DNA of 64,000 nucleotides from a virus (IMGVR_UViG_3300046786_000304:1-64000), one strand, 5' to 3'; shown: positions 26,769-61,226, counted from the first letter of the stretch. Numbers and translations: made by a program. The notes: generated from the letters alone by a model not told the origin.

Positions 26769-26773
26769 GCTGA

Positions 26774-26808
26774 TATTTATTGACACAAATTGGTTTTGGT
26801 GCTATAAT
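26774..26808. promoter_or_regulatory. Back-to-back promoters: minus-strand TAAATA (26774-26779) abutting plus-strand TTGACA-N17-TATAAT (26780-26808)
   Basis: tatttaTTGACAcaaattggttttggtgcTATAAT. Confidence 0.75.
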
Positions 26809-33464: not shown

Positions 33465-34345
33465 CATTAAGAACAGAAATTGATTTTGAAAAAGATAAGA
33501 ACTATGTACCAGTATTGGATCATGGTTTTGTAGGTCTAGTAGACCATATGGGCAGTGACAGCGCAATCGTGCAGGCCGCTCGTGTCAGCTATGGTGCTGG
33601 CACTAAACAAGTTCAAGACGATCGCAATCTTATTCGTTACTTAATGCGACATGAACACACAACTCCTTTTGAAATGTGCGAAGTAAAATTCCACATTAAA
33701 CTTCCTATCTTCGTTATGCGACAACTTGTACGGCATCGTACTGCCAGCATGAACGAATATAGTGCTCGTTATAGTGTGCTTACAGATGAGTTTTACATTC
33801 CTGAACTAGAACAAATCCAGAAGCAAAGCACAACTAACAAGCAGGGCCGTGAAGAAGCTGAATGGGGCTTTGAAGAAAAACGTGGAGTACAGCATGCCTT
33901 CCAACGTAGTTTCCATAATGCTTATAAAGAGTATGCTAGTTTGCTAGGTAAAGACGATGACGGGCTAGCACGTGAGTTGGCTAGAAGTGTGCTTCCAGTA
34001 GGCGGATATACAGAATTGTATTGGAAAGCCAACTTGAAGAACTTCTTACATATGGCTCGCTTACGTATGGATCCACACGCACAATGGGAGATCCGAGAAT
34101 TTGCCTCAGCTATGTATAACTTAGCCAAGCCACTATTCCCAGAAGCATGCCAAGCATTTGAAGACTATGCCGTTAACTCTGTCAAGCTTAGTGCTGGAGA
34201 ATACGAGCTAGTTAAGAACCTAATTAGTCATAGTAAGTGGGTGTCATTAGTCGAGAAGTACGGCAATGACGAAAAAGCCCTGGGCTTGGACGCAGGGCTT
34301 GGTATTCGTGAACTAAGAGAGTTTAAAGAAAAATTAGGTTTGTAA
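33461..34345 (+). CDS. thyX: FAD-dependent thymidylate synthase
   Basis: IVQAARVSY, HEHTTPFE, RQLVRHRTASMNEYSARY, ARSVLP, HAQWEIR. Confidence 0.96.
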   Translation: MTLRTEIDFEKDKNYVPVLDHGFVGLVDHMGSDSAIVQAARVSYGAGTKQVQDDRNLIRYLMRHEHTTPFEMCEVKFHIKLPIFVMRQLVRHRTASMNEYSARYSVLTDEFYIPELEQIQKQSTTNKQGREEAEWGFEEKRGVQHAFQRSFHNAYKEYASLLGKDDDGLARELARSVLPVGGYTELYWKANLKNFLHMARLRMDPHAQWEIREFASAMYNLAKPLFPEACQAFEDYAVNSVKLSAGEYELVKNLISHSKWVSLVEKYGNDEKALGLDAGLGIRELREFKEKLGL

Positions 34346-34888
34346 TGGATCAATGCTTATCTCGTTGATATGTAGATAAGCAGGTTGTTCCGTTAACCAT
34401 TTAATATAATTGGCAGCATCCAGTATTGTAATTGTTTTACGATCTGGATGTTTTTCTTGCATGTTACTTAAAGTACCAAAGCTAATATAACTTACTCTTG
34501 GTCCTTCATTCCATACACCATTAAGGCACAGACTATTACAGTAGTCGCGTAATGCTTTCTTTTCCGCATTGTATAACCAATCCGTGGCTTTCATTACTCT
34601 ATCAGTTGTGCTACCAATAGCAATGATATGAGTTTTCTTTCCTAGTGCTTTTAATTTTTTGTATGTTGCTTCAAGTAACAATGTTTGATTAAATTTCCAT
34701 AATGCGCTACATAAAATAACAATATCATAGTCGACCGATAGTTCAGCAAAACGTTGTTGTTGTTCTGCTTTGGTTAAGTCATATCCGCAACTTCTACTTA
34801 TAAATGTTACATCATGCTCTGCTAGAGAATGTTTTAACCCTTCGGCTAGTCCGTAGATGCTATTACCTGCTACTAATATCTTTTTCAT
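34334..34888 (-). CDS. Short atypical SDR oxidoreductase
   Basis: ILVAGN..GL, GYDL, IGST, YNAEK (YxxxK). Confidence 0.75.
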   Translation of the reverse strand: MKKILVAGNSIYGLAEGLKHSLAEHDVTFISRSCGYDLTKAEQQQRFAELSVDYDIVILCSALWKFNQTLLLEATYKKLKALGKKTHIIAIGSTTDRVMKATDWLYNAEKKALRDYCNSLCLNGVWNEGPRVSYISFGTLSNMQEKHPDRKTITILDAANYIKWLTEQPAYLHINEISIDPLQT

Positions 34889-36198
34889 TTAAACAATCTT
34901 TCATATTCTGGTGCAATATCTAATATACTGTGTCCACGTGCTTGGTCTAAGTACTTTGTAAATTTAATAAATTCAGGAAGTCTTTCACTATAATCAGCAC
35001 CTAACATATATTTTGTAATGCTGTTTAAAATGTTTTCAGCGTTTTTAGCAATTTCTTCCGGATACTCTGCTTTGAATTCTTCAATGCACTTAGCGTAGTA
35101 TTCAACTACTTCTTGTTTCATGTCTATAGGCAATACACGCACATTAACACGTTTTGGTCCATGTGCCACGTGATGTGTTATAATAGGACGCTTTTTAGTG
35201 CTATTAATCTTTTTAAATCCGCTACTCTGCAATTTCCATTTCATAAAACGAGGTATGTGCCAAATGTTATATGCTGTTACTGTACAGGCCAGCCAAGCAA
35301 GTATGTTTGGATTCTTTTCTGCGTATTCATCTAACTTTTGTAAGTTCTTATATGCTTGGCTCCACTTCAAAGGCCAACGCTGATACTCAACTGTTTCGCC
35401 CATGCCATCCATACTAGCACCAACTCGAACTTGTTTGAACTGTGTCCACATATCCAACACACGCTGTGGTAAGTTACTCATGTTAGTATTGTATTCAATG
35501 ATCATCTTTTTACTTTGACCCATGTCAATACATTTTTGTAAAAACTCATAATGACGTTCAATCATCATTGGCTCGCCTCCGGCCATATAAACGTGCTTGA
35601 TGTTTGGAATATTTGCTTCTATCTGTGTCCAAAAAGTTTCGCTGTTATGCCAATCATAGTCTGTGGTAGTTAATCGTCCGTTGTCATTGCGAGTTAGTTT
35701 AACTGTGCCGTGTGTATCTTTATATTCATCGCTGCCGTGATAGTCTGTCCACTGTTCATACCAAGTATGGCTATCAGTGGGACCGCACATACGGCAAGCT
35801 AAGTTACATAAGTTACCAAAACGCAGATCATAGTATTCTAGTTTTCTATCTTTAACTGTGCCGTCTGGTTCTGTAATATAACGAGCATCATCTATGCTAA
35901 ACTTCCAATTTTCTAATTCATATTGTCTGCGACTATTAAGACCACTAGCTTCTTCACTTTGACAACGACCGCACTCTTGACTCCACTCTCCTGTCAGCAT
36001 GTTCTTACGAACTTCTTTCATTAGAGTAGCGTTGCGAGCAAGTTCCATATTGTCACGGCCTGCATTGTAAGGTGTTCCATCTTCGTGTCTAACTACACCT
36101 TGATTCTCTGTTACATTAGCTTGACAACATACACGAATGTCGCCATTGTTTCGTACAGCTTGAAAGTTCCAAGGTATCGGGCAAAATGTATTACTCAT
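34885..36198 (-). CDS. Radical SAM protein, subtype A (N-terminal Twitch)
   Basis: FCPIPW...VCC...CGRC; CNLACRMC; AGGEP; start moved to 36198 (TAATG overlap). Confidence 0.92.
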   Translation of the reverse strand: MSNTFCPIPWNFQAVRNNGDIRVCCQANVTENQGVVRHEDGTPYNAGRDNMELARNATLMKEVRKNMLTGEWSQECGRCQSEEASGLNSRRQYELENWKFSIDDARYITEPDGTVKDRKLEYYDLRFGNLCNLACRMCGPTDSHTWYEQWTDYHGSDEYKDTHGTVKLTRNDNGRLTTTDYDWHNSETFWTQIEANIPNIKHVYMAGGEPMMIERHYEFLQKCIDMGQSKKMIIEYNTNMSNLPQRVLDMWTQFKQVRVGASMDGMGETVEYQRWPLKWSQAYKNLQKLDEYAEKNPNILAWLACTVTAYNIWHIPRFMKWKLQSSGFKKINSTKKRPIITHHVAHGPKRVNVRVLPIDMKQEVVEYYAKCIEEFKAEYPEEIAKNAENILNSITKYMLGADYSERLPEFIKFTKYLDQARGHSILDIAPEYERLFK

Positions 36199-36980
36199 TA
36201 ATAATCCATCCATCCAATATAATTATCAACATTTTTTGCAGGAGCAACAAAATCTTGTATTTTTAATTTTATTTCTTTAATATTGTTTTCGATTGCGTTG
36301 CGTACAATAGTTGTTAGCACCATGTTATTTTCTTCTGTCAAATGACATATCCTATTATCTCTAATAAATCTTTTATTTTCTGTATCTTCATATCCCGCCG
36401 GGGTTCCTTTAAATATATATTGTTCGTGGTACCCGGGCATATTATTTAATTCCCATATCGTTATATCTTGTAATCCTATATAGCCTGGATCAGAACTTTT
36501 TACATCTATCGTAATTAAATTTTTAAAACTTTTAATTTTTTCTACTAATAATAAATTTACAGTATTTACATAATCATCGTCTTTCCAGAATTCAAAATAT
36601 AATCTTACACTATCAAATAATTTTAAATTAAAATCTGTGCCCGTTGGGTTAAATTTATCTTTGTATGTATTTTCATGAAGCAGGACATTTGAATAATGTG
36701 TATACCAATTTTTATTAGATAAAGTTTTTGATATGTCCGAGTTTTCTAAATAAGATGAATAAAATCTATCCGTAGTAGGAATTATCATAATATTAATGTC
36801 ATTCTTTTGATAATTTTCCATGTAATCAGCATAACATTTATAAATGGAATTTCCTGGATGGCCATAGTTGGTTACATCGTAGTACTCTTTTAAATAATTT
36901 ACCCAAAAATTTTGTTCGACATTTGGGTTCATTACACTACAGTAACTATCTCCGTATACTCCTATTGTTTTCTTATTCAT
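36198..36980 (-). CDS. SGNH/GDSL-like protein
   Basis: YGDSYC, YGHPGNS, C-terminal CHLTEENN. Confidence 0.65.
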   Translation of the reverse strand: MNKKTIGVYGDSYCSVMNPNVEQNFWVNYLKEYYDVTNYGHPGNSIYKCYADYMENYQKNDINIMIIPTTDRFYSSYLENSDISKTLSNKNWYTHYSNVLLHENTYKDKFNPTGTDFNLKLFDSVRLYFEFWKDDDYVNTVNLLLVEKIKSFKNLITIDVKSSDPGYIGLQDITIWELNNMPGYHEQYIFKGTPAGYEDTENKRFIRDNRICHLTEENNMVLTTIVRNAIENNIKEIKLKIQDFVAPAKNVDNYIGWMDY

Positions 36981-37750
36981 ATCTTTTCCCAGCCTACATA
37001 AAAATCTAGGTCTTTGGATGGTTTAACAAAGTCTTCAATAGACAACTTTATCTCACTGATGTGTTCATTGAAGGCGTCTAAAATTTTTTCATATAAAATA
37101 AAACTGTTTTCTTCTGATAAATGATTTTTTCTACGATCAAACAAAGCCATGGATTTGCTTTCATCTATAGATGAAAAAGTCTTAGGATATTTTTCAGTAA
37201 AGCCTAGTTGGTCTAATTCCCAATTTGATATACCTGTTAATCCTTCTTTGCCTTTATGCTGATGAGTCTGAGTATCGATTAATATTACGTTATTAATCTT
37301 TTTAATATCGTTTAGCATTAGATCAGCTATTGTTGTATCAACGTTATGATCTTTCCATTCGGTCCAATATGTGTATACGCTGTCTATTATTTTTAGTAAA
37401 CGGTCTGCATCCTTGTATGATTTTTTATCTTTTTCAATTAATATTTTAAATATTTCCAAAGACGATATATTGTTAAACCAGTTATTAAATGGTATCTGGT
37501 CCGAAAGATGGTACAATTTACTTGAAAAAAATCTCTGCTGTACCGGTATTAAGAAAATATTATAATCATATTTGTTATGACAAGTTTTAATTGTTTCGTA
37601 GCATTGGTATATTGAATTTCCAGGCTCACCAAAATTTGTCACTTCGTAGCCTTGTTCGAGAAGGTTGACCCAACTTTTGCCCATGATATGATTTTCACTT
37701 CGGTAGTTAGCAAAACTGTCGCCATATATACCAATTGTTTTTTTACTCAT
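36977..37750 (-). CDS. SGNH/GDSL-like protein (paralog of the adjacent gene)
   Basis: YGDSFA, FGEPGNS, NHLSEENS; start moved to 37750. Confidence 0.65.
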   Translation of the reverse strand: MSKKTIGIYGDSFANYRSENHIMGKSWVNLLEQGYEVTNFGEPGNSIYQCYETIKTCHNKYDYNIFLIPVQQRFFSSKLYHLSDQIPFNNWFNNISSLEIFKILIEKDKKSYKDADRLLKIIDSVYTYWTEWKDHNVDTTIADLMLNDIKKINNVILIDTQTHQHKGKEGLTGISNWELDQLGFTEKYPKTFSSIDESKSMALFDRRKNHLSEENSFILYEKILDAFNEHISEIKLSIEDFVKPSKDLDFYVGWEKI

Positions 37751-38909
37751 AACTCTTGTCACCGGGGAACAACGGCATCTTAGTGCCAGGAGCACGTTTA
37801 GGTATCTTACTGTCAGCACTACTTACACAACTATGTCCGCCACAGGGCATTGGTTTGTCATATAACTTAAAGCCTGTTTCAATGTGTCCCAGTGGTACTT
37901 CACTACAACTATAGCTACGTTTGATAGTGCCGTCAGGTTCGCGAATAATAATACTGCGATAGCCACTGCTACATTCCCAACCATGGAAGTTATTGAAGTT
38001 AAATGCGTTAAAGCGTTCTGCTTGATCCATAAACCAAGGATTACCTTCTTTATCTCTGAACTCTACTTGATAATGTGCGGGTGTGCTTGCTTGTTGTTTA
38101 CGCAAAGGATCTGCTTTGTCAATCATAAATGTAGGCTTAGGCCTTTCGACTAGGCCTGCTTTGGCAGCCTTTACTTCTGTATAAGCACGTTGCGGCATAC
38201 CGTTGTGAAGTTTCTCTAACATGTCATCGGTATAACCATCTACTACACGGCTAGCAGTAGGATCGCTTTGTGGCTTTAATGTAACATTGATACCGCGTTC
38301 ATGAAAGTACAGAGCAAGGTCATAAATTTTATAAAACTGCTCGGGCACCATAACTTGATTAATAGTTACTTGCGTGTCATATTCTTGGCACAATACTAAT
38401 TTGTCTCCAAACTCTTCTACCTTCTTATCAGTGTCTACGTGCTCTAAGTGACAGCTGGCTGTTATACTCGCTCTGTGAAAATGTTTAACTGCTGGTACAT
38501 ACTTTTCTTCAAACCATTTAATAGGGCGACTCATATTACTGGTCATGTGTACGCTGGTATAGTTTGTATTAGATACATCATCGTTTAAGTGATTAAGAAT
38601 ATCAATGTAAGCAGGATGGAATGTAGGTTCACCACCACTTAGACTAAAGTGGAAACTATTAAAACCATTGGCTCTGGCTTGACGTTTAATCTCGTCTACC
38701 GTCTTTAACATTAAAGGAGTAGGACGATGGTCTTTTGTATCACTGCGGGCGTATGGCCAGCAATAACTGCAACGATAGTTACAGTAACGTCCTAGCAACC
38801 ATGATACGGTAAACATATCGCGGTATAACATTGTTCTTTGTCCAACTCTAACTAAATCCTTGTATGGAATTTTAGTAAAGTCATATTCACTTGTTTTTAA
38901 ATCACTCAT
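37743..38909 (-). CDS. Radical SAM protein, subtype C
   Basis: CNYRCSYC, SGGEPT, WECSSG...SC...CGGHSCVSSAD.KIPK; start moved to 38909. Confidence 0.92.
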   Translation of the reverse strand: MSDLKTSEYDFTKIPYKDLVRVGQRTMLYRDMFTVSWLLGRYCNYRCSYCWPYARSDTKDHRPTPLMLKTVDEIKRQARANGFNSFHFSLSGGEPTFHPAYIDILNHLNDDVSNTNYTSVHMTSNMSRPIKWFEEKYVPAVKHFHRASITASCHLEHVDTDKKVEEFGDKLVLCQEYDTQVTINQVMVPEQFYKIYDLALYFHERGINVTLKPQSDPTASRVVDGYTDDMLEKLHNGMPQRAYTEVKAAKAGLVERPKPTFMIDKADPLRKQQASTPAHYQVEFRDKEGNPWFMDQAERFNAFNFNNFHGWECSSGYRSIIIREPDGTIKRSYSCSEVPLGHIETGFKLYDKPMPCGGHSCVSSADSKIPKRAPGTKMPLFPGDKSYE

Positions 38910-39132
38910 CTTGTTCGTAGACAAACTTAATGTCTTTTCCTGGGCCCGCTTCGCTGGGCATTCCGCCGTATTCTTTTACATACCATTCTATTGCCGCAAC
39001 ATACCAACCCTGACTGTTATGTCTGCTGGCTTTGTTAAAAATATAAATGTTATCATTAGTTGCTGGCATTGTACTTATGACTCGTGCCGCTTCTAATTGT
39101 AATTGTCTCAATGGTAAATCTTTAATGTTCAT
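38902..39132 (-). CDS. 76-aa hypothetical protein coupled between two radical SAM genes
   Basis: Overlaps both neighbours. Confidence 0.65.
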   Translation of the reverse strand: MNIKDLPLRQLQLEAARVISTMPATNDNIYIFNKASRHNSQGWYVAAIEWYVKEYGGMPSEAGPGKDIKFVYEQDE

Positions 39133-40334
39133 TATACATCCAAATTGTCTAATAAGTCAACTAGTACGTCTGTCTTTTTATAATCTTGTTTTTTCAATAA
39201 AAACTGTCGAGCTGTTTCTTTGTAGTCAGGATCATAAGATGATCCTATACGCTTACGCATTTGATTTAGATAGTCTGTAAAATTCTCTTTGTAAACATAG
39301 TTGACATCTGTGGCTTTTGCTATAGATTGCTCTGCCAAATCTATATACTTTGTATATTCTTTTGGCAAATGTGCTATGTCCATTTCGTCGGGCCAACTAG
39401 TAAAGTTGCCATACCATGTAAATTCTTTGTTAGGTGCATGTGTTCTAAATTGTTCATGTACCCAGTCTATGTATTCATGAAATGTTTTTAAATTAAACAT
39501 ACTTGCTGTTGGACTTAGTACAATTAATTCTGTTTTAGGATGCTTAATGTATTTTACAAAATTTTCACTAAATCTATCCCAAACTAGGTTATGTCTTATT
39601 AGCTCTGCGCTTTTACCAAAACTTTCATTGCTGATACCTATTCCCCAAGATAGTTTACTAGTGTCCATTTTTTCAATGAGCTTATTCATTAAAAAGCTTT
39701 TACTGTTAGCATTGGTACAAATTTCTAATCTAACTTTTTTGCCACTGCCTTCTGCGGCAGTCTCAATATAATCAACTAACTCATAAAATCTAGAACTAGC
39801 AGTAGGTTCTCCACCTAAGAATATAAACACAATTTGATTGTTTAATAAATCATCTCTATGTAAAAAGTTCTTAATCCAAGATTTAAAAACTTCATAATCA
39901 TGTTCTTTGGTAAGATCTTCATAGGTTTCGTTTTGTTCTTGTGCTACTTTACTGCTACTCCATGAGCTACAATAAATGCAACTCATATCACAGATCCTAT
40001 CTGTTTTTATTTCAATGTAGTTTATATAACTATCACTGCTGCCAATTTTTTCACGATTATTTTCAACAAACTCATCGGTCCATCTGTTAGCCCAATCTCG
40101 ATAAGCACTATTGCCTTTACTATAATCATTCCAGCAACTATTACAATCTGCGTGGGCAATATTGTCTAAACTTTGTTGTCTGCGTTCTTTAATGCCAGCA
40201 CTATTGCTTATAAATTCTTCAGTAAGAACTTCTGGAAATTGATATACTGCGGCTTTACAGCAATGTTTGATTGTTCGTGACTCGAAGTCAATGTTTATGT
40301 CTGTCCATGATTTCGAGCAATATGTTTTTGTCAT
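39132..40334 (-). CDS. Radical SAM protein, subtype A (N-terminal Twitch)
   Basis: YCSKSW...HCC...CNSC; CDMSCIYC; LGGEP. Confidence 0.9.
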   Translation of the reverse strand: MTKTYCSKSWTDINIDFESRTIKHCCKAAVYQFPEVLTEEFISNSAGIKERRQQSLDNIAHADCNSCWNDYSKGNSAYRDWANRWTDEFVENNREKIGSSDSYINYIEIKTDRICDMSCIYCSSWSSSKVAQEQNETYEDLTKEHDYEVFKSWIKNFLHRDDLLNNQIVFIFLGGEPTASSRFYELVDYIETAAEGSGKKVRLEICTNANSKSFLMNKLIEKMDTSKLSWGIGISNESFGKSAELIRHNLVWDRFSENFVKYIKHPKTELIVLSPTASMFNLKTFHEYIDWVHEQFRTHAPNKEFTWYGNFTSWPDEMDIAHLPKEYTKYIDLAEQSIAKATDVNYVYKENFTDYLNQMRKRIGSSYDPDYKETARQFLLKKQDYKKTDVLVDLLDNLDV

Positions 40335-40354
40335 AAATTAATAATATGCGTAGA

Positions 40355-40371
40355 TAAATATTTAGTAAATA
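40355..40371. promoter_or_regulatory. Palindromic TAAATATTTA (40355-40364) plus a second TAAATA (40366-40371) between divergent genes
   Basis: Perfect 10-bp palindrome that reads TAAATA on both strands. Confidence 0.55.
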
Positions 40372-40386
40372 TAACCTGGATAACTT

Positions 40387-41124
40387 ATGACCACTCCTAC
40401 AAACCAATATGGTGTCAGTACCGAACCTATTGATAGTTTTTCGAAACGAAACGACTATCCTGCAAATTGCAAATACCCACAAAATCTAGCAACTCCAAGA
40501 GACGTTAATTTTAATCCCGACATTCCTTTTTTACCAATTGACGATTGGAAAGACACAGAAGATTGGGAAAAGATGTATGCCGAAGCCAAAGCCTTAGAAA
40601 AACATTATGTACCACATAGGCATCATGAATCTCATAAAGGCTGGAGTAGTTTATGTATTCATGGTTTAAGTAGTGTACATACCGAAAGCAGTCATACATA
40701 TGGATTTAAAGACGATGAAGCTCCGTGGCGTTGGACTGATGTAGCAGATTGGTGTCCTACTATTAGAAACTTCTTTAAAGAAAAATTTGATTATAAAAAA
40801 TATTTCAGAGTTAGGATTATGAAATTAGCTCCAGGCGGCTATGTTATTCCACACAAAGATACCATCGATGTTGCAGAAAGTCATATTGGTCCTATTAATG
40901 TAGCGTTAAATCATCCTGCTGATTGTAAATTTTACATGGATGATATCGGTACTTTGCCATGGACTGCTGGCAGAGCTATTAAATTAAATTTATATAATGT
41001 TCATGCGGTTGTAAATCACAGCAACCAGGACAGATATCACATCATTGTACACGGACACGCTGGCAACACATGGCCTAACAGAATACTTAATAATTATAAA
41101 ACTTGGAGTAAGACGTATGAGTAA
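40387..41124 (+). CDS. Aspartyl/asparaginyl beta-hydroxylase-like 2OG-Fe(II) oxygenase
   Basis: RVRIMKLAPGGYVIPHKD, HAVVN, RYHIIVHG. Confidence 0.8.
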   Translation: MTTPTNQYGVSTEPIDSFSKRNDYPANCKYPQNLATPRDVNFNPDIPFLPIDDWKDTEDWEKMYAEAKALEKHYVPHRHHESHKGWSSLCIHGLSSVHTESSHTYGFKDDEAPWRWTDVADWCPTIRNFFKEKFDYKKYFRVRIMKLAPGGYVIPHKDTIDVAESHIGPINVALNHPADCKFYMDDIGTLPWTAGRAIKLNLYNVHAVVNHSNQDRYHIIVHGHAGNTWPNRILNNYKTWSKTYE

Positions 41125-42628
41125 AAAATATATCAACGCATTAGTTACAGATAAAAGTAACATTGGCATGGACCCAATAGTGCGTGAAAGTTTGTTGACT
41201 TTCTATAGAAGAAATTTATGGATCGATAGCGTAGTAAATAATCCGATTCGTTCAGTTACATTACCTACAGAAGATGAATGTATTTCTGTGGCAGCAGATG
41301 GGTTAGACATTGAATTTGATTATTTAATTCTAACTTGGGAAGGAAATTTCTTTGATATCTATAGATATCATCATGAATGTATTGCCGCTATAGATGCTAT
41401 AGAAAATGACACAAACGGCAATTGGCTAGTAGCTGGCCATATCATGGATCAGGAACAAAACAGAATATTTAATCATGATCCAAGTTCTGCCGAGTGGAAG
41501 AATAGTTTTTGGTTATTCCCTATTACTGCGTTAATTAATTTAAAGAAATGGAAAGAACTTGGCAGGCCATTATGGGGATCAGAAATGGGCAAAGAATTAA
41601 TCGAACTAGTAACTGCTGTGCCATCCACAGATTGTGTGCATGATAATTACACTCCGTTGTCCGTAACATCAGGAGAAGGAACAAAGCAGACACGTGTTAA
41701 AAAGGGATGGAATTTCGTTAATGAAAGTTTAAAAGCAAATCTTCCTGTATTAAATTTACCTAAAAATGTTAGAGAGTTTCAAAATTACTTGTATCCCGAA
41801 AACAATATCAAACTTTTCAATGATTTCTGGCATTCATTATATAACATGCCTAAGGTAACATCTCAATACAGAAAAGTGTTAGAATCAGTGATTACTAGCA
41901 AATACGAACGACGCATTAAAGATTCTACATGGCAATGTTTCATTAGAAACACCGAAGATTATTATCCTGTCGAACACAAGCATAATTCATCGAATATTGA
42001 TTGGACTAGTATAGAAACTATAATGCTTCCATGTAGCGGATTTAAAGATTTTATACTCGCTATGGGTTTTAAGGGTGCGAAGAAGAAACTTAATATAATA
42101 CATTTTGATATTATTCCACAATGCGTTAAGATTCGACAACTTCTGATAGAACAGTGGGATGGACAAAGAAGTACGTTTAGTAAAACTTTGTTAGAAATTG
42201 GAAAATATTTCACCGTCGGACCGCCCGGAGATGTTTATCATATGAACTCAATGAAGACTCTGGAAGAAGCTTATGATCATATGTTACAGTTTTTTGGTAG
42301 CGAAGACAATTTAGAAAGATGCTGGAAAGAATTCCAAGCCTGTGATCATCGTTATGTAGCGGCAGATATGTTGTCAGACCCATGGATGGCAACAAAATTT
42401 GTCCAAGGTGATAAAAAGATTTATGTATGCCTTAGCGACATTGCCGGTTGGCGTAATAATCTTATAGCATATGGTTATAGATCTTTGCGTGACGACATTA
42501 TAAATTGTGTTAAAAATTTAAAAGCAAAGGGTCATGATGGATTAATAGATTATAAAGATCCTGCCACTGATTTGCAATTTTGGCACACGTTTGACGATGC
42601 TATAGCATACTTAGAAAAGAATTTGTAA
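41117..42628 (+). CDS. Hypothetical protein (503 aa; N-terminal half possibly glycosyltransferase-like)
   Basis: Start moved to ATG 41117; VAGHIMD, LINLKKW, HDNYTP; fold call is weak inference. Confidence 0.7.
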   Translation: MSKKYINALVTDKSNIGMDPIVRESLLTFYRRNLWIDSVVNNPIRSVTLPTEDECISVAADGLDIEFDYLILTWEGNFFDIYRYHHECIAAIDAIENDTNGNWLVAGHIMDQEQNRIFNHDPSSAEWKNSFWLFPITALINLKKWKELGRPLWGSEMGKELIELVTAVPSTDCVHDNYTPLSVTSGEGTKQTRVKKGWNFVNESLKANLPVLNLPKNVREFQNYLYPENNIKLFNDFWHSLYNMPKVTSQYRKVLESVITSKYERRIKDSTWQCFIRNTEDYYPVEHKHNSSNIDWTSIETIMLPCSGFKDFILAMGFKGAKKKLNIIHFDIIPQCVKIRQLLIEQWDGQRSTFSKTLLEIGKYFTVGPPGDVYHMNSMKTLEEAYDHMLQFFGSEDNLERCWKEFQACDHRYVAADMLSDPWMATKFVQGDKKIYVCLSDIAGWRNNLIAYGYRSLRDDIINCVKNLKAKGHDGLIDYKDPATDLQFWHTFDDAIAYLEKNL

Positions 42629-48514: not shown

Positions 48515-49712
48515 TTTTAAATAAATCCTTTAATACAGGAAATGTTTTGTAAAAATCAGTTTTTCTTATTTGATCTTTATGCTCTGTTCTTATCTTTAAT
48601 TTACTAAGCAACTCGTTTGATACTGGAACTTTAATAAGATTTTGCAATAATTTGATTTCATCTATCATAGTCTTTGTATCTTTATTGTCTTGAACTTGTA
48701 ATTCTAGCTGCCAATCGGCATAGTATTTTAACGCTTTTTCTTTAAGATCGTCTGGAAGATTCGCTGATCTGTAATAGTCTTTGCCATGTACTTGCATAAA
48801 ATGCATACTACCTTCGTTAATAACTCCTTCTTTGACAAAGAAATTATACAATTCCTTGGTATAAAATAAATTAAGAATAGTAACCGCAACACCTAATATT
48901 ATTTTTACATCGGGAGCATTTTTTCTTATGTACTTTAAATTACTAACAGTTTCTTCCCAATTAGCACCATAGCGTATATATTCAAATTGTTCCCATCCAG
49001 CATCTATGCTGACACTAATTCTAACATTTTTAAATTGCTTCCATAGATCAACTATGTTCTTATTACCCAAAGAGATGGTTGTTCCGTTTGTATTGTATCT
49101 TAGTGTAACATCAAATTTTTTATGTTCTATTAATAATTCTAATATTTTATACTGGTCTTTGATTAATAAAGGTTCGCCGCCAGCAAAGTACATTTCTGTA
49201 ACTGTATCAATGTGCTTTTCAAAGTATTTGATAAAATCATCCACGTCGTCGAATGCATTTTTTAAGCCGCCTTCGTTTTCTTCTTCAGCAATCCTGGAAC
49301 TATCCAATGGTTGGCAAATCAGACATTTTAAATTACAAAGATTACTGAATCTAACGTCCCATAAAAACATTTTTTCGTTGTTAATCAATTGTTCTTCGGA
49401 ATCAAAGTTATCTAATAAGTATCCGTATTTTCTATTACTTTCTAATCTGTAAGAATGATTGCCGCCGTAGTACTCGGTATCTTTACACTTATAGCATGAC
49501 TCATGTAATTCGTCTGTGACAAACGATTTTCTAAAATTAGTTAGTGTATCGTTTTTGCTTGAATAAATTTCTTCTATAGAATTGTTTACCAATTTCCCTA
49601 AAACAAAGTGATTCATGCAACAAGGATTGGCCAAGCCATTTTGCCAAATACATGAATGTACAAAAGGTAATATACAAAACCCTTTTTTATTCAAAAGTTC
49701 CTGAGAATCCAT
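48507..49712 (-). CDS. Radical SAM protein, subtype A (N-terminal Twitch)
   Basis: FCILPF...PCC...CYKC; CNLKCLIC; AGGEP. Confidence 0.92.
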   Translation of the reverse strand: MDSQELLNKKGFCILPFVHSCIWQNGLANPCCMNHFVLGKLVNNSIEEIYSSKNDTLTNFRKSFVTDELHESCYKCKDTEYYGGNHSYRLESNRKYGYLLDNFDSEEQLINNEKMFLWDVRFSNLCNLKCLICQPLDSSRIAEEENEGGLKNAFDDVDDFIKYFEKHIDTVTEMYFAGGEPLLIKDQYKILELLIEHKKFDVTLRYNTNGTTISLGNKNIVDLWKQFKNVRISVSIDAGWEQFEYIRYGANWEETVSNLKYIRKNAPDVKIILGVAVTILNLFYTKELYNFFVKEGVINEGSMHFMQVHGKDYYRSANLPDDLKEKALKYYADWQLELQVQDNKDTKTMIDEIKLLQNLIKVPVSNELLSKLKIRTEHKDQIRKTDFYKTFPVLKDLFKNV

Positions 49713-51115
49713 TATATGTCCTTGAAGATATCTTTCATCTCCGGGAAAGTTTCATAGAAACTAGTACCACGTTGCTTGTCTAATAACTCTAAGTATTCTT
49801 TCATTTCTGGTAAGCGAACACTCCAGTCTTCACTTTTAGCAAAGCGGACCATGCCACGAAGCCTATCGATTCCGTAGTCAGCATTTAACCACATCTCTTC
49901 CGTAACTTTACCTTCATGCCACTTTGGCACACCTTTTTGCCAGTTAGCTTTCCACCATGGGATAAACTCTTCGTACTTACGTTCGATTTCGTCTTTGAAC
50001 CATGCTGGCAATATCTTAACATTTAAGTGCGGTGGATGGTAAACAAAGTGATAGTTAATGCCGCCGGCACCAAATGGCCACATGTTAATCTTCTTAAAGC
50101 CATGCTCTAGTTTCCACTTTAAGAACTCTGGAATATAGTAAATATTCAATGCTTGTACAGCACAGGCAATAGTAACTTCTACGTTGTTAGGAGTTTCTTC
50201 GTCTAGCTGTCTAAATGCTTCTAAGTTTCGAGACCACTTGCTAGGATAGCGAATGTAATCGTTTCTATCTTCGATAGCGTCAACACTATAGTGATAACGA
50301 ACTAACTTAAAGTGACTCCACAATTCAAACAAATCTTCACGCCACTCTACTCCATTACTGTTATAACGAATCTCCATGTCCTTGGCATAACCACGCTTAA
50401 TACATTCTTCTAGAATAGCATAGTGTTCTTCAATGATTAAAGGTTCGCCACCGGCAAAGTAAAGCTGTTTCATGTTAGGGATCTGTTCCCATAACTGTTC
50501 CCAGAATTGAGGATTGTTTTTGTGCCAGTTATAGCTAGCACCGTTTTCCTGTCCTTTGTTACCCCATTGCATACTATCTTTTAATACAGGATTCTGTACT
50601 TGTGGATACATCTTTTGCCACTCTGGAATCCATAAGCTACTGTCGTGCGGACTACACATAACACAAGCTAAGTTACATTTAGTACCAAAGCGCATATCAA
50701 TATAAGCGATATGCGGAGGAACACTTCCATCTGGTTGCGTATCAGCAATTAGTTTATCTAAATCAACACGCTGTCGCCAATAAGCAGTTTCCCATTGACG
50801 TTTAGATTTATGTCCTTCGCGTTCTTCTTTGTAGCATTTAACACAGCTAGGGGGTTCTGTACCAGCTAACATGTGCAAACGATTGTTTTTCATATAATCG
50901 TTGTTCCATGAGCTTAAAAAGTCTGTATGATTTAAGTTAGCAGGTTTTCCGTCTGCGTTTTTTAATACACCAACTTCGCCTCCATGGATTTTATCATTTG
51001 TTGGACCTACTGAACTGGCATTAGCAGTACAGCACACACGCATATGGCCATTGGGACGAGTGCTTAAATGTACCCATGGTAGGATACAAAACGTTTTACT
51101 TGGGAGTTCTTTCAT
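49712..51115 (-). CDS. Radical SAM protein, subtype A (N-terminal Twitch)
   Basis: FCILPW...VCC...CVKC; CNLACVMC; AGGEP. Confidence 0.93.
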   Translation of the reverse strand: MKELPSKTFCILPWVHLSTRPNGHMRVCCTANASSVGPTNDKIHGGEVGVLKNADGKPANLNHTDFLSSWNNDYMKNNRLHMLAGTEPPSCVKCYKEEREGHKSKRQWETAYWRQRVDLDKLIADTQPDGSVPPHIAYIDMRFGTKCNLACVMCSPHDSSLWIPEWQKMYPQVQNPVLKDSMQWGNKGQENGASYNWHKNNPQFWEQLWEQIPNMKQLYFAGGEPLIIEEHYAILEECIKRGYAKDMEIRYNSNGVEWREDLFELWSHFKLVRYHYSVDAIEDRNDYIRYPSKWSRNLEAFRQLDEETPNNVEVTIACAVQALNIYYIPEFLKWKLEHGFKKINMWPFGAGGINYHFVYHPPHLNVKILPAWFKDEIERKYEEFIPWWKANWQKGVPKWHEGKVTEEMWLNADYGIDRLRGMVRFAKSEDWSVRLPEMKEYLELLDKQRGTSFYETFPEMKDIFKDI

Positions 51116-51120
51116 ATTAA

Positions 51121-51126
51121 TATTTA
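51121..51126 (-). promoter_or_regulatory. TAAATA box 5 nt before ATG 51115
   Basis: Built on the TAA stop of the upstream SGNH gene. Confidence 0.45.
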
Positions 51127-51876
51127 CTCAAATTGTCCTTTAATATGATTTAAAACTTGTTCTGCAACTAGCTGATGTTGTTCTTTAGACAAATGGCTAC
51201 CCAATAATCTATCTTCGCATCTTAGCATAGGCTGTATATCAAGAACGTTGGTAAATTTATCCAATGATAAAAAATTAAAATTATCAGTGGCTTCATTTCT
51301 TGAATTATATATTCCTTTTTTTCTAAATGCCAAATGTTCAGAAATATTTAAAAAGTAAAAAGGAATTCCTTTTGATTTTAGATACCCATCTAACATATAC
51401 ATATCCATGGCATCATGTAGTGTTTGGTTTTCCGTCATTGCTATCTTCAATTTTTCTGTTATGTATGCTTCGGATAGGTCAACTGGATTATGTAATTGAA
51501 TGTCACATTGTCTGCATTCATTAAATATCAACTCTCTATCCGTTGGAGATATTTGAAGATAAATGCAGTCTATTTGTGTATTACCTTCTTCTACTAGTCT
51601 TATAATATCAAAAATATTGTGTCTCATACTTTTTCCGTTCAATGAATAACACGTAGTTTTAATATTAGAGTCTAAGTCCATTATTAATTTTGGGTATGCT
51701 AGTTGTTTATTTTCAAATTGATATAAATCATAATCTATGTTAACTGTTAAACGTTTTTTAAAAAAACTGCGGACGGTGTGCTCTTCTGTGAATTTCCATG
51801 GAAAGTATTTTTCATCAGTTAATTCGTCGCCGGCTGTAAAGCTACAGCCAAAGAAATGTATATGTAAATCTCTCAT
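51124..51876 (-). CDS. SGNH/GDSL-like protein
   Basis: FFGCSFTAG, SLNGKS, SHLSKEQH..VA. Confidence 0.65.
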   Translation of the reverse strand: MRDLHIHFFGCSFTAGDELTDEKYFPWKFTEEHTVRSFFKKRLTVNIDYDLYQFENKQLAYPKLIMDLDSNIKTTCYSLNGKSMRHNIFDIIRLVEEGNTQIDCIYLQISPTDRELIFNECRQCDIQLHNPVDLSEAYITEKLKIAMTENQTLHDAMDMYMLDGYLKSKGIPFYFLNISEHLAFRKKGIYNSRNEATDNFNFLSLDKFTNVLDIQPMLRCEDRLLGSHLSKEQHQLVAEQVLNHIKGQFE

Positions 51877-52943
51877 AATACTTTATAATTTCCTATTGGT
51901 AAAACTTCTAATTTTTTAACATTACAAACTTCAGTACATCTATGAATTCTATCAGTTTTACCTATGCCATGAGTTTTTGAATTCCAACTAGTAACTAAAT
52001 CGTTTTTATAAAAATCATGTGCCAAAACTTCTTCTACTGAATGTTTGCTTAAATCATTCCAATCGTCGCCGCCGTAAGCATCGAATACTCTTTTATGTAG
52101 CACGTTTGCTTTGCCTCTGTCTAGGTTCATAAATCCGTTATGTATAAAACAACAAGGCCAAATTCTACTATCATGTCCAATGAAATACATACGTTTATTT
52201 TGATTGTTACAACTTATATCATTTTGTACTTCGTCCTCTAGTGACGAGTTAACATCGTATAGGCTACTGCTCCATGTTTCGGGAGAAGCATTAATTTCTT
52301 TTCTTTTTTGTATAACTTTCAAACCTAGTTTAGTGGCAAGACTTCTGTCATGTCTGCTCATGAATTCAACAAAGCCCATTTCAACACTTAATTTCTTTGC
52401 ATCCATTACTTGATGTTCGTTCCAAGGGAATATTAAATATTGCCATCCAGCAGTGCCTCCGGCGTCAATGAATGCCTGTGCATTTTCCATGATCTTAGAC
52501 CATGTGGTATTTTGTCTATATATATGATTAGTATCTTCCAAGCCGTCGATACTAAATTTTACCATATGTCGTTTATGTTTCTTTAAGATATGTGCCATTT
52601 TAGTCCAATAATCTTTGTTTCTCAAACTGGCATTAGTATGTATATAAATGGTGTATTTTTTATCATGCGCTTCGGCAGCAAAATCTAAAAATTCTAAGAA
52701 CTCAGGATGCATCAACGGATCATCTATAGTTCCGCAAAATTCTAATTCGCCAACAGAAGCAAAGCTTGGACTTGTTACAATTTTTTTAAATACATCAAAA
52801 CTAATATATTCTTTTTCAGGTATAACATATTTCTTTTCATTGAATGAATTTGTGTTTGTACGCACACATCCTAGACATAATGCGTTGCACATTGAACTTA
52901 GTTCAAATTGTATTTTTGCTGGGTTGTTTAAATATGTATTCAT
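51873..52943 (-). CDS. Radical SAM protein, subtype B
   Basis: FELSSMCNALCLGC; GTIDDP; TNAS; ISC...PCCF...CTEVC. Confidence 0.9.
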   Translation of the reverse strand: MNTYLNNPAKIQFELSSMCNALCLGCVRTNTNSFNEKKYVIPEKEYISFDVFKKIVTSPSFASVGELEFCGTIDDPLMHPEFLEFLDFAAEAHDKKYTIYIHTNASLRNKDYWTKMAHILKKHKRHMVKFSIDGLEDTNHIYRQNTTWSKIMENAQAFIDAGGTAGWQYLIFPWNEHQVMDAKKLSVEMGFVEFMSRHDRSLATKLGLKVIQKRKEINASPETWSSSLYDVNSSLEDEVQNDISCNNQNKRMYFIGHDSRIWPCCFIHNGFMNLDRGKANVLHKRVFDAYGGDDWNDLSKHSVEEVLAHDFYKNDLVTSWNSKTHGIGKTDRIHRCTEVCNVKKLEVLPIGNYKVL

Positions 52944-53881
52944 AATTCTTTAGGTATCATAACATCGGCGGTACACATACACCATTCAGTATGGCAAACA
53001 GTGGGCTGTTGTGTGAGTTGAACAAAATCAAAAATTGTTCCTACTTGTTTTGATTGATTACAAGCAGACTGTAAAATAATGCCGTCGGGTCGTATCAGTA
53101 TATGATCTATGCCCATATTGCATTTCCAATTTAAAAATGTATTCTTTCTATTATTGGTAAACTCGACTTCATCTAATCTGGATACACTTGTGCCGTCATT
53201 GATCCAAGTATTTCCGTAACTGTTGTTGCTAGGGGGTGGAAAATTATTATCTTTAAATATTACATTGCTGTTATTTTTTAACCATTCTAATTGTTCATTG
53301 TCATATTCATAACTAGAAGACTGCGATTCAATGCCTTTGTTACGTTCAAAAACTCTACTAGGCGCAATGGTTACTCTGTCCATTGCTTTAAATTTTTCAT
53401 AAGCATTTACAGCTTTATCCCATAATGGCGGATACATTAGTGTAAAAACGCCTACATTAGTCTGTGTTCGAATATACTCTACTTTTTCAAATAGTTCTTC
53501 GTCAATGACTGTTTCTGGATGATAACTGATTGTTATTTTGAATATCTTATGGGCATACTCATGCCACCAATCCAAACTGCGACTGCCGTTAGTGTTAACA
53601 TAGGCACACCAATTTGATTCGTGACAAAAATCAATAATAGTTTCTAGGCTAGGACTAATAGTAGGCTCGCCGCCATTTAAAAATATATGAACGCTTTTGC
53701 CCTCTAATTGCTTTTTAATATTAACTAAAAATTCTTTAATTAATACAGGGTCTTCTGTTTTACTTTTAAATACATTGGTGCCACGATGTAATGTAGGCGG
53801 GCAATAGCTACAGTGATATGTACATAATGTATTCAATGTCCAGTCGATGGTAAATCTATTTGAATCATTATAAATTTTCAT
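52940..53881 (-). CDS. Radical SAM protein, subtype C
   Basis: CTYHCSYC; NGGEPT; TNGSR; WKCNMG...AC...CHTEWCMCTAD..IPK. Confidence 0.92.
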   Translation of the reverse strand: MKIYNDSNRFTIDWTLNTLCTYHCSYCPPTLHRGTNVFKSKTEDPVLIKEFLVNIKKQLEGKSVHIFLNGGEPTISPSLETIIDFCHESNWCAYVNTNGSRSLDWWHEYAHKIFKITISYHPETVIDEELFEKVEYIRTQTNVGVFTLMYPPLWDKAVNAYEKFKAMDRVTIAPSRVFERNKGIESQSSSYEYDNEQLEWLKNNSNVIFKDNNFPPPSNNSYGNTWINDGTSVSRLDEVEFTNNRKNTFLNWKCNMGIDHILIRPDGIILQSACNQSKQVGTIFDFVQLTQQPTVCHTEWCMCTADVMIPKEL

Positions 53882-55113
53882 AAATCAACTAACCATGGGA
53901 ATGTTTCTTTCCAATTGGTTCCTCGCCGTGAATCTAATAGATTTAATTTTGTTTTTAATTTTTCTATAACTATGCTATCGTACTTTGAATTTTCTATCTC
54001 GTTGAATATTCCTTTTATGTATTCTTGTGATACATTATCGCCCTCGAATAATGCCACATTAAGTGCTAAAATTTCTTCAATAAATTTAGTGTATGTACCT
54101 GGAGGCATATGATGCGGATCATAGATAAAAGGATCTATACATTTATTGTAGTTTATATTAAAATTTTTATTACCTTTCCATTCGATTACTTTTCTAATCA
54201 AATCAGGTATATAAGGAATACTCAATGTACTAACTGTTAAATTTATTGTAGGTATGATTTCCGGGCATTCGTCGATTAGGTATTTTATATTTTCTTCAAA
54301 GGTTGCCATATCCATACCATGTCGTATGTATTCTGTAGCAGGACCCCAGCAATCAATACTACATACGAATCGTATTTCTTTTACTGTCTTAGATAGTGCT
54401 CGCAATTTTTCCATGCCACGTTTGAAGAGTAATGGCTTTACTTGCATGTTTGAATATATTTCAATGTCGCACTCTGGATTAGGGTGGGCTATCATCCAAT
54501 CAACACAGTCCCATGTTTCATTTTGAATAAAAGGCTCGCCGCCTAATAAGTCAAATGCTTTTAAACTACTGTAGTTATTTTCCATCCATGTATAAAACTT
54601 TTCTACACGCTGTTTATATTTGTCTTCTAGTTCCCATGAATTTAAATTAAGCGAGCCATTTTCATATTCATTGATTTCTTTAACCCATGCGCTACTTAGG
54701 TTCGGGCCACAATACACACATTTTAAATTACACTTATTATTAAAATGTACGCTTAACTGTGTTGGCTTAACTTTTGTTGCTGTGGGATCTTTGTATAACT
54801 CTATAGGAACATATCTAGCGTTTTCTGGCCTAGATAGGAAGTTCATTCTGTCACTCATGCCGCCTGCTAATTCTTGATCTCTACAATGCTCACAGCCTCG
54901 TCCATCTGAGGGCCATTCACTGCGTAACATTTTTTGTCTATGCTCTACAACCGGAGCAGTATTGTTGAAGTCATAGTCGTCGGGTATGTCTGCATTTTGA
55001 TTTCTGTGGCAACTACTACTTTTATTTTCCCAAAGGTATAAGCTTACTTGACTCCATTTTTGTAAACATACTGTGTTTCCTTGTGGAGGAAACCATTTTT
55101 CTACAGACATCAT
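53878..55113 (-). CDS. Radical SAM protein, subtype A (divergent N-terminal Twitch)
   Basis: VCLQKW...SCH...CEHC; CNLKCVYC; LGGEP. Confidence 0.9.
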   Translation of the reverse strand: MMSVEKWFPPQGNTVCLQKWSQVSLYLWENKSSSCHRNQNADIPDDYDFNNTAPVVEHRQKMLRSEWPSDGRGCEHCRDQELAGGMSDRMNFLSRPENARYVPIELYKDPTATKVKPTQLSVHFNNKCNLKCVYCGPNLSSAWVKEINEYENGSLNLNSWELEDKYKQRVEKFYTWMENNYSSLKAFDLLGGEPFIQNETWDCVDWMIAHPNPECDIEIYSNMQVKPLLFKRGMEKLRALSKTVKEIRFVCSIDCWGPATEYIRHGMDMATFEENIKYLIDECPEIIPTINLTVSTLSIPYIPDLIRKVIEWKGNKNFNINYNKCIDPFIYDPHHMPPGTYTKFIEEILALNVALFEGDNVSQEYIKGIFNEIENSKYDSIVIEKLKTKLNLLDSRRGTNWKETFPWLVDL

Positions 55114-55119
55114 TAATCC

Positions 55120-56292
55120 TTATTTAAATTGTTCGCTGAACGCATCATATTTAGTGCCACATGTCTTGGCACAAACTGCTAGCTTTCCTTCAGCACAACT
55201 TGGTTTATTCCAACTATTAGGGATTATTTCTTGTATAAACTTTCCATTCACTACATCTTTAATGCCATGTTTTTTTAAGTCTAATGAATCTAAGCCAGCT
55301 TCATTGATAGCAGACCAAATCTGTCCGCCTTGCTCTTTCCAGTACCAAACATACATCTGTCCAGCAGTCCAGCAACAAGGTTGTAAGTATCCTTCGGCAG
55401 TAACATAAATGCTTTTCTCTTCTGATACTTTGCATTTAATAGGCACAGAGTCCCAGTATTTTTCCATGGGCTTTTTTAATTCTGGATCTGTGTTAAATTT
55501 TTGTCCGCCTACTTTATCTTTAAGAGCTTCTACGGTAGTTATTAATTCGTAGGGATCAGACTTTTGCCCTGCTGTTATATTTGCTAAATTTTTAATGGCA
55601 GCATTGTGATACTTGGGATTAGTAGGCATTGCCAATAATGCTGTGGCAGACCCTTTACGATTTCCAGCTTGATGTTCTTGTTTAACTTCGCCTCGAGTAT
55701 TACTAAAGAAGCGATTACTCTTTTTGATATTAAATTTCTCAAAACCCATTTTGGTGGCCAATGCTTCGGCTTCTTCTACTTGATGTTCATTGTGTGCGAA
55801 TACTATATAATCCCATCGTGCTCTCCCGCCGGCATCAATGAATGCCTGTGCGTTTTCCATTATTTTTTTCCACACAGTACCTTGACGATATAAATGATTA
55901 GTATCTTCCAATCCATCTACACCAAATATAACATAACCCTTTTGTCCAATTACACCAGCAAGCTCTGCCCACCACTCTGGCTTTTTCATACTGCCATTGG
56001 TGTGCATACTAAGATTAAGTTTTGGATTGTGTTCTCTAAAATAAGCAAATGCTTCCAGCGTATCTGACGCTACAGCAGGGTCGCCATAGTTTCCGCACAT
56101 ATATAAACGGTTTAATTGTTTGATAAAATCTACGGGGAATATCTGTTCTATATCAGCAATACTAAGTTCAGCACCGTGTAACAATGGACTAACTTCGCCA
56201 CCATTTAAGTTCCTAGCGCACATAGGACAAGAGGCGTTACACGCCTCTGTCATTTCTAAATGCACAGTGGTAATATCACTGTAGTTATACAT
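55120..56292 (-). CDS. Radical SAM protein, subtype B
   Basis: HLEMTEACNASCPMC; GNYGDP; TNGS; IKC...PCCW...CAKTC. Confidence 0.93.
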   Translation of the reverse strand: MYNYSDITTVHLEMTEACNASCPMCARNLNGGEVSPLLHGAELSIADIEQIFPVDFIKQLNRLYMCGNYGDPAVASDTLEAFAYFREHNPKLNLSMHTNGSMKKPEWWAELAGVIGQKGYVIFGVDGLEDTNHLYRQGTVWKKIMENAQAFIDAGGRARWDYIVFAHNEHQVEEAEALATKMGFEKFNIKKSNRFFSNTRGEVKQEHQAGNRKGSATALLAMPTNPKYHNAAIKNLANITAGQKSDPYELITTVEALKDKVGGQKFNTDPELKKPMEKYWDSVPIKCKVSEEKSIYVTAEGYLQPCCWTAGQMYVWYWKEQGGQIWSAINEAGLDSLDLKKHGIKDVVNGKFIQEIIPNSWNKPSCAEGKLAVCAKTCGTKYDAFSEQFK

Positions 56293-57825: not shown

Positions 57826-57826
57826 A

Positions 57827-61218: not shown

Positions 61219-61226
61219 TATTTATA
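61219..61226 (-). promoter_or_regulatory. Exact T4 late box TATAAATA, 5 nt before ATG 61213
   Basis: tatttata on the plus strand, intergenic. Confidence 0.65.

Follow-up and report, generated by a model that had tools for sequence, protein, structure and literature searches.

A radical SAM gene array beside glycosyltransferases in a large freshwater phage, with bacterial counterparts and a plausible role in glycan tailoring

Why would a virus carry a dozen radical S-adenosylmethionine (SAM) enzymes side by side? The question is raised by the sequence IMGVR_UViG_3300046786_000304:1-64000, a 64-kb stretch (hereafter, the window) that constitutes the first 64 kb of a 233-kb IMG/VR virus record of freshwater metagenome origin and an estimated completeness of 65%. 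Within it, twelve intact radical SAM genes are packed into positions 34334-56292, behind genes for a carbamoyltransferase, three putative glycosyltransferases (GTs) and a methyltransferase-like protein. This context lends good support to a role in glycan tailoring, of putative chemistry and target. Our preferred reading—held with a confidence that falls somewhat short of even—is that the island assembles a glycan and tailors it by radical SAM chemistry, the product being displayed on virion proteins.

The contig is DNA of a large phage. Its family B DNA polymerase (PolB) shares 47-50% identity with the Atu_ph07 and Phosso enzymes and 43% with those of Rak2-like jumbo phages, and structural genes of the same record specify baseplate wedge proteins of the T4 type together with a virion protein of 2910 aa and a protein resembling a tail fibre. 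A viral rather than cellular origin, as assumed in a preliminary description of the window, is thus borne out by the PolB and T4-type baseplate genes.

A motif scan of the list of open reading frames (ORFs) returned exactly one CxxxCxxC in each of the twelve array genes, and every radical SAM call is backed by a Pfam Radical_SAM or an NCBIfam match, in agreement with the number and positions reported before. Across the 233-kb record the motif occurs in 20 of ~298 ORFs, 12 of these 20 lying within the 22-kb array. All-against-all BLAST recovered the three recurring subtypes that had been proposed, termed A, B and C. Seven array genes belong to subtype A, all on the minus strand save one: 34885-36213, 39132-40334, 42628-44688 (plus strand), 44645-45901, 48507-49712, 49712-51115 and 53878-55113; with extra copies outside the array at 74249, 75687 and 222140, the record holds ten. 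Subtype B (45898-46959, 51873-52943 and 55120-56292; mutual identity 24-29%) and subtype C (37743-38924, 52940-53881 and, outside the array, a lone gene at 25821-26786; mutual identity 23-26%) are encoded on the minus strand. Paralogs inside any one subtype share just 20-35% identity and are thus of old origin, not the result of recent duplication.

The subtypes differ in where their additional cysteines reside. The N-terminal twitch domain previously ascribed to subtype A was confirmed for all seven array genes, which score above the curated full-length cutoff (170 bits) of the NCBIfam family NF033640 (N_Twi_rSAM, "twitch domain-containing radical SAM protein"), with 385, 174, 253 (residues 230-669), 327, 313, 426 and 236 bits in the above order, versus 26-63 bits for subtypes B and C, which are not members. 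Pfam SPASM matched two of the seven (44645, residues 9-71; 48507, residues 13-77). Among 85 diverse subtype A sequences, C10, C91, C94, the CxxxCxxC motif, GGE, N254, S277 and R289 are invariant and C28 nearly so. In subtype B the radical SAM core comes first, followed by a C-terminal, twitch-like module with the pattern C-x18-CC-x66-CxxxC (five cysteines) that is conserved in 132 homologues and matches the N-terminal module of subtype A, such that A looks like a permuted B. Subtype C has 3-4 conserved C-terminal cysteines. The CxxxCxxC motif is invariant in all sequences aligned (85 of subtype A, 132 of B and 58 of C), while the SAM motif reads GGEP in all A and C genes and GxxGDP instead in B. 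All three subtypes thus possess extra cysteine sets predicted to be able to hold an auxiliary Fe-S cluster.

The array enzymes reached none of the cutoffs for MoaA, PqqE, NirJ/AhbD, QueE, anSME or the sactipeptide/ranthipeptide maturases (best scores 15-62 bits versus 180-650), and with no score near the cutoffs for MoaA, PqqE, NirJ and QueE they fall outside known cofactor pathways, as anticipated. Subtype C produced weak QueE-like matches. An AlphaFold2 model of the subtype A protein encoded at 49712 (pLDDT, the predicted local distance difference test, 90) matched radical SAM cores at Z ~10-11.5, with BlsE (top in VIA-align, Z 11.5), viperin, CteB, SkfB, anSME, SuiB and MoaA tied in the range 10.2-11.5. 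The model places this protein in the SPASM/twitch/MoaA neighbourhood, a fold from which sugar and peptide substrates are indistinguishable.

Directly upstream of the array, the minus strand encodes a class I methyltransferase-like Rossmann protein (56292-57149), three GT-A-fold paralogs (57136-57852, 57827-58858 and 58830-59579) and a carbamoyltransferase of the NodU/CmcH/TobZ type (59604-61076; Carbam_trans_C 1.6e-53, Carbam_trans_N 4.7e-36). The GT paralogs constitute one mostly viral family for which Pfam has no model, their profiles being connected by hhalign with 100% probability. An AlphaFold2 model (pLDDT 90) adopts a GT-A fold, in which the DxD residues D57 and D59 are invariant in 36 sequences, and Foldseek matched it at a probability of ~1.0 to SunS (best), WrtF, GtrB and the capsid glycosyltransferase A64R of PBCV-1 as well as to GT2-named clusters of the AlphaFold database. 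The GT-A genes had no Pfam match above cutoff, neither the GT-A nor the methyltransferase-like profile found a significant match among PDB sequences, and Pfam on the GT-A fusion proteins of relatives gave just sub-threshold GT2 matches. Many relatives encode tandem fusions of two GT-A domains, or fusions with 300-800 extra residues (e.g., related loci L064:5785-7389 and L058:1213-4446). The methyltransferase-like protein showed a weak thermospermine-synthase match, and its nearest Atlas clusters include Methyltransf_31.

This gene combination recurs. The subtype A protein at 49712 (core A) has 4272 metagenome homologues, the best 120 listed being 71-93% identical, and it matches at least 199 IMG/VR stretches. 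In 80 related loci fetched with core A as the anchor, the recurring core consists of the carbamoyltransferase, 2-4 GT-A domains, the methyltransferase-like gene, core B (55120; at least 35% identity), core A and core C (37743; conserved C318, C361 and C366). Core A is present in all 80 by construction, core B in 74, and core C has orthologues with at least 50% identity in 32. Related loci hold up to 12 CxxxCxxC genes in 21 kb. Outside the core, turnover is extensive: the 292 type-A proteins of the 80 loci form 94 clusters at 55% identity, and contigs whose core A is at least 90% identical to that of the window carry different cassettes between the same anchors. Radical SAM content thus changes strongly between close relatives, in keeping with the paralog turnover suspected earlier, and the constancy of the transferases beside variable radical SAM enzymes suggests a constant backbone with differing edits. 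Among 50,697 phage records, megablast of the 22-kb array found no match and tblastn of core A three weak ones (24% identity; Ralstonia RsoM2USA and Vibrio K566/K567), none of them close. At the array edge of one related locus (L076:20063-20302, plus strand), an ORF of 79 aa carries an LGSDD motif reminiscent of acyl carrier proteins; no counterpart of this ORF was seen in the window.

Nor is the module confined to viruses. While none of 14 model genomes had an NF033640 member, of 151 genomes sampled from the phylum to which a Bacteriovoracaceae metagenome-assembled genome belongs, 31 did, with up to 11 copies and often on megabase-size contigs; in the Bacteriovoracaceae genome itself, the radical SAM subtypes stand alongside GT2. 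In four loci from Bdellovibrionota, A, B and C genes are joined by members of the phage GT-A family; two of these loci add the methyltransferase-like family, and another one a homologue of the gene at 34334. A Parcubacteria contig of 1.27 Mb carries eight A genes plus B and C, flanked by GT4, GT28, AsnB-like and Sua5/YrdC genes, and has no match to the phage GT-A family. The radical SAM/GT-A/methyltransferase module is therefore common to phages and bacteria, neither specific to phages nor a phage invention. As the radical SAM genes travel with glycosyltransferases in every one of these contexts, we favour a carbohydrate product.

Sugar-chemistry genes upstream of the island, part of them just past the window, fit the sugar-related neighbourhood described before. 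Still inside the window, the minus strand between 61229 and 63976 encodes the pyrimidine-binding subunit of a thiamine pyrophosphate (TPP) enzyme (61229-61771), two proteins without assignment and a short-chain dehydrogenase/reductase (SDR) of the epimerase/dehydratase type (63041-63976). The block continues past the window edge and comprises an RmlC-like 3,5-epimerase, the split TPP E1-like pair, a Methyltransf_24 protein, a GDSL protein, two subtype A radical SAM genes and a fourth GT-A gene at 77274. Of its three SDR-type genes, two have Pfam epimerase matches, and for the third (63973-65007) the assignment follows from paralogy alone. The halves of the TPP enzyme (Transket_pyr, and E1_dh/TPP-binding) lie apart on the minus strand, at 61229-61771 and 68758-69387; in the biosynthesis of some antibiotics, E1 alpha/beta pairs of this type equip deoxysugars with two-carbon branches. 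Also within the block, three minus-strand paralogs of 470-494 aa (65941-67425, 67364-68773 and 70502-71938; 28-38% identity) have no Pfam match.

All of these genes are part of a single minus-strand run of ~60 kb, from ~96.7 kb to 34.3 kb, in which neighbouring genes nearly all abut or overlap and whose sole strand exception is a plus-strand insert at 40387-44688. Along the run, baseplate and fibre genes are followed by the sugar-chemistry block, then by the carbamoyltransferase, the three GT-A genes and the methyltransferase-like gene, and finally by the radical SAM array, which forms the distal end. A baseplate wedge gene, the gene for the 2910-aa virion protein and the tail-fibre-like gene thus lie directly upstream on the strand of the island, and of five relatives that are 212-257 kb long, four have a baseplate gene 23-60 kb upstream in the same strand and order. 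A crude Kyte-Doolittle hydropathy scan detected no membrane protein among the glycan and radical SAM ORFs up to 96 kb, the only one predicted in the run being a 177-aa baseplate-wedge-like protein at its head (96209-96742). The sole multi-pass membrane protein of the window (9338-10528, plus strand; ~9 hydrophobic segments) belongs to a plus-strand operon at 6.9-15.9 kb, outside the island.

Late-type promoter boxes had been reported to head much of the cluster. One exact T4-type late-promoter box, TATAAATA, indeed heads the carbamoyltransferase/GT/radical SAM block, 143 nt upstream of the carbamoyltransferase (61219-61226, minus strand), but it is the single exact copy on the cluster strand in the window. 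Exact boxes are depleted, with two in the window versus 9.7 expected by chance. Of the 13 copies genome-wide, ten are located 6-34 nt before an ORF start, and those on the cluster strand lie at 81290 (18 nt before an ORF), 61219 and 223498, the last just ahead of the tenth N-terminal-twitch gene. As judged from the sequence, this placement fits T4-type late transcription. Because of the proximity to tail genes, the late boxes and the all-soluble enzymes, virion proteins are the likeliest acceptor in the phage.

The preferred reading would work as follows. Sugar-nucleotide enzymes of the SDR, RmlC-like and TPP-dependent types, whose genes lie upstream, would feed the assembly of a short glycan, put together and decorated on a soluble acceptor by the GT-A enzymes, the carbamoyltransferase and the methyltransferase-like protein. 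The auxiliary-cluster radical SAM enzymes would then edit its sugar residues by hydrogen-atom abstraction, with oxidation, epimerisation, deoxygenation, decarboxylation and C-C bond formation as possible reactions by analogy with BtrN, SpeY, NeoN, AprD4 and BlsE. The variable radical SAM paralogs would yield strain-specific structures, one core A, B and C staying constant. The island would be transcribed late together with the baseplate/tail-fibre module, and its product would end up on tail or baseplate proteins. In a bolder form of this proposal, which we put forward tentatively and consider rather unlikely as it stands, the editing would follow assembly: a constant oligosaccharide on tail or baseplate proteins would be rewritten residue by residue by strain-specific twitch radical SAM enzymes.

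Several observations weigh against glycan tailoring on the virion. No subtype A, B or C enzyme has a known substrate, and in the fold search sugar/nucleotide enzymes (BlsE, viperin) and peptide maturases (CteB, SkfB, anSME) score alike, at Z 10.5-11.5. The matches of the GT-A model to PDB chains are only modest, with template-modelling scores of 0.36-0.41. An oxygenase of the Asp/Arg-hydroxylase type and a conserved 73-aa protein (both described below) would also suit a protein substrate, and the metatranscriptome runs of the same study contain next to no reads of the phage sequence. Lastly, in Bdellovibrionota the module is chromosomal and its loci also hold multi-pass membrane proteins with 5-9 helices, so that a virion target cannot be general and a cell-surface glycan becomes possible. 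We weighed four alternatives: in order of likelihood, the target or product would be a glycan of the host surface, a protein or peptide substrate, a soluble glycoside or, last, DNA.

That the island might remodel lipid-linked lipopolysaccharide (LPS) or capsule of the host—with the phage supplying soluble enzymes and the host the carrier lipid, flippase and ligase—is unlikely in our view, yet has more in its favour than the other alternatives. Soluble GT2/GT4 enzymes often use lipid-linked acceptors, the variability of the cassettes resembles the diversity of O-antigen loci, and the membrane proteins near the Bdellovibrionota module are potential flippases or polymerases. The latter gave no identification, however: single-sequence PDB searches with two membrane proteins from the bacterial loci returned no match. 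In the phage run, the hydropathy scan up to 96 kb picked up no priming transferase, flippase, polymerase or other membrane protein among the glycan and radical SAM genes, and so none of the membrane components (priming transferase, flippase or transporter, polymerase) of Wzx/Wzy- or ABC-dependent surface polysaccharide loci. Late boxes and a position behind the tail genes also suit a component of the particle over a change to a cell nearing lysis.

We assign a small probability to a peptide pathway, in which the radical SAM enzymes would mature a virion protein or the 73-aa protein, by cross-linking, epimerisation or a part in hydroxylation, and the GTs would glycosylate the same polypeptide in a glycocin-like manner. 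Here, the closest solved folds of core A include CteB, SkfB, SuiB and anSME, and the top match of the GT-A model is the peptide S-glycosyltransferase SunS. Moreover, the plus-strand insert encodes a 2-oxoglutarate/Fe(II) oxygenase of the Asp/Arg beta-hydroxylase family (40387-41124; PF05118, E 1.1e-9, above cutoff), and a conserved small ORF usually lies just before core B. This ORF, absent from the ORF list, encodes 73 aa at 38914-39132 (minus strand) in the window and is 63% identical to a 74-aa ORF present in 44 of the 80 loci, where the 73-75-aa protein has its usual place between the methyltransferase-like gene and core B. It has no family match and no usable Atlas match, its uniform conservation leaves no variable core, and none was found in the cellular loci; a complex prediction with core B scored 0.00, a value that counts neither for nor against binding. 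A second polypeptide of interest is a 365-aa protein with a long (Tyr-Gly)n tract between Gly/Ser linkers (81312-82409, minus strand; L089:17312-18409), whose gene is flanked by the tail-fibre-like gene and by the late box at the head of the glycan operon. Its homologue in the closest relative (G006) retains a shorter tract, but four other long relatives have none, and with a homologue in only the closest of five we rejected it as a general acceptor. Both proteins remain leads for a protein acceptor. Against a purely peptide pathway, the sugar-nucleotide genes would have no role in it, and Pfam/NCBIfam family searches of the array proteins reported no RRE/PqqD-type domain.

There is only a slim chance that the product is a small soluble glycoside, akin to an aminoglycoside or nucleoside antibiotic and directed at the host or at competitors. 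Clusters for such antibiotics (TobZ, BtrN, AprD4, BlsE) show a similar mix of carbamoyltransferase, twitch radical SAM, GT, SDR and methyltransferase genes, BlsE is the top VIA-align match of core A, and all enzymes are soluble. We found, however, no scaffold-forming enzyme (e.g., of the 2-deoxy-scyllo-inosose synthase type) and no exporter; a small molecule would also leave the post-tail position with its late boxes unexplained, and extreme cassette turnover between strains is more typical of surface structures. Finally, hypermodification of the phage DNA with glycosylated or decorated bases—DNA glycosylation being known in phage T4 and its relatives, and subtype C having the weak QueE-like matches—is very improbable, given that the genome has no Pfam TGT/DpdA match, that T4-type DNA-modification genes are early whereas this run has late boxes behind tail genes, and that the module is also chromosomal in bacteria. 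The plus-strand gene at 6932-8500 was considered as a dpdA candidate and rejected as unsupported, with no PHROG or NCBIfam match to it and no Pfam TGT in the 233-kb record.

The remaining genes of the island are less readily placed. At its distal end, the run closes with a short SDR-like protein (34334-34888, minus strand; SDR_TniO_fam, E 2e-7, far under cutoff), a homologue of which adjoins the arrays in one Bdellovibrionota genome; the methyltransferase-like family likewise adjoins Bdellovibrionota arrays. Two tandem minus-strand paralogs (36198-36980 and 36977-37819; 38% mutual identity) have no family match. In the plus-strand insert, the oxygenase gene is followed by one for a 527-aa protein (41045-42628; no Pfam, NCBIfam or PDB match) and by the subtype A gene at 42628, which has a fused N-terminal region of 230 aa. 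On the minus strand again, subtype B gene 45898 is preceded by genes for a recurrent 273-aa protein (46956-47777; match in 29 of the 80 loci, no family match) and a DUF6071/SGNH-like protein (47774-48514; PF19547, E 7e-4, under cutoff). Single-sequence PDB searches with the 41045 product, the N-terminal 230 aa of the 42628 product and the 46956 product found no match. The gene at 73594-74283 matches PF19547 plus GDSL models, with no similarity detected to the 47774-48514 protein. A 250-aa protein (51124-51876, minus strand) drew no match. The lone subtype C gene at 25821 has its CNFDCSFC at residue 29, shares 23-25% identity with the copies at 52940 and 37743, and exceeds no NCBIfam cutoff. 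Among the neighbours named in the preliminary description, the carbamoyltransferase and the oxygenase hold by Pfam and the three GTs by fold only, and the matches behind the methyltransferase-like, SGNH and SDR assignments are weak.

Elsewhere in the 233-kb record, two further radical SAM genes (195610-197142, plus strand; 208310-209755, minus strand) resemble B12-binding methyltransferases (PhpK/HpnJ-like) at scores far under cutoffs, and others are found at 100935-101870 (TrsS/MoaA-like) and 213029-213925. Families for Fe-S assembly or reductant supply (Fe-S_biosyn, NifU_N, Flavodoxin_1) had no match in the 233-kb fragment.

How does the island compare with known systems? BtrN, SpeY, NeoN/HygY, AprD4 and BlsE combine a radical SAM core with one auxiliary cluster, as predicted for the array enzymes, and likewise operate beside GTs, carbamoyltransferases and SDRs, and DesII and AprD4 are also among the VIA-align matches of the core A model. 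The array nonetheless scores far under the cutoffs of their families (for the BlsE family, 18 bits versus 400), subtype A differs from BtrN/BlsE-type enzymes by its N-terminal (permuted) auxiliary domain, and aminoglycoside and nucleoside pathways have one or two twitch radical SAM enzymes each, versus twelve here. With NF033640, the A genes of the array and the three elsewhere, which likewise exceed its full-length cutoff, share the N-terminal cysteine module, the CxxxCxxC motif and GGEP; this is a named family without known substrate or product, present here in ten copies per genome and in combination with subtypes B and C. The chlorovirus PBCV-1 A064R system of cytoplasmic virion glycosylation likewise relies on soluble virus-encoded GT-A enzymes and methyltransferases, near structural genes and with no lipid-carrier machinery. 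The virion glycosylation reported for mycobacteriophages (Freeman et al. 2023, cited in PMC12801897) is a comparable virus-encoded system. We know of no radical SAM enzymes in the virion glycosylation of chloroviruses or mycobacteriophages.

Large radical SAM complements have been noted in phages before. About a dozen such genes each, for which no function was given, were counted in the T4-like Campylobacter phages CP220/CPt10 (11-12; PMC2853527) and in an environmental T4-like genome of marine origin (12; PMC5332604). These reports provide gene counts and describe neither the present radical SAM family nor its subtypes, GT partners or cellular counterparts, and in our tblastn search core A matched no Campylobacter phage. 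The literature yielded no functional study on N-terminal-twitch radical SAM enzymes, on jumbo-phage radical SAM enzymes with GTs, or on twitch radical SAM enzymes with polysaccharide. The idea of an undescribed phage system stands as far as function is concerned, but needs amending in three respects: the module is chromosomal in Bdellovibrionota, subtype A already is a named NCBIfam family, and phages with 11-12 radical SAM genes are in print. If the island does tailor a glycan, it belongs to a known kind of system, encoded by viruses or cells, and the chance that its chemistry is new is substantial.

Auxiliary-cluster radical SAM enzymes are a major source of new chemistry, and subtype A is a family without a known reaction, which in this phage and in the 80 related loci consistently accompanies the Pfam-less GT-A family. 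Should the product of the island be a virion glycan, it would be the first radical-SAM-tailored virus coat and would account for those large phages, described in 2010 and 2017, that carry a dozen radical SAM genes. Provided that a cultured Bdellovibrionota strain has a chromosomal copy of the module, its function might be approached by genetics, bypassing both the uncultured phage and its host. And if a constant oligosaccharide is indeed rewritten after its assembly, such radical editing would do for carbohydrates what proteusin-type editing does for peptides. It would define substrates for hundreds of uncharacterised radical SAM enzymes and provide phages, and Bdellovibrio-like predators in possession of the module, with a fast-evolving surface code that is made independently of oxygen.

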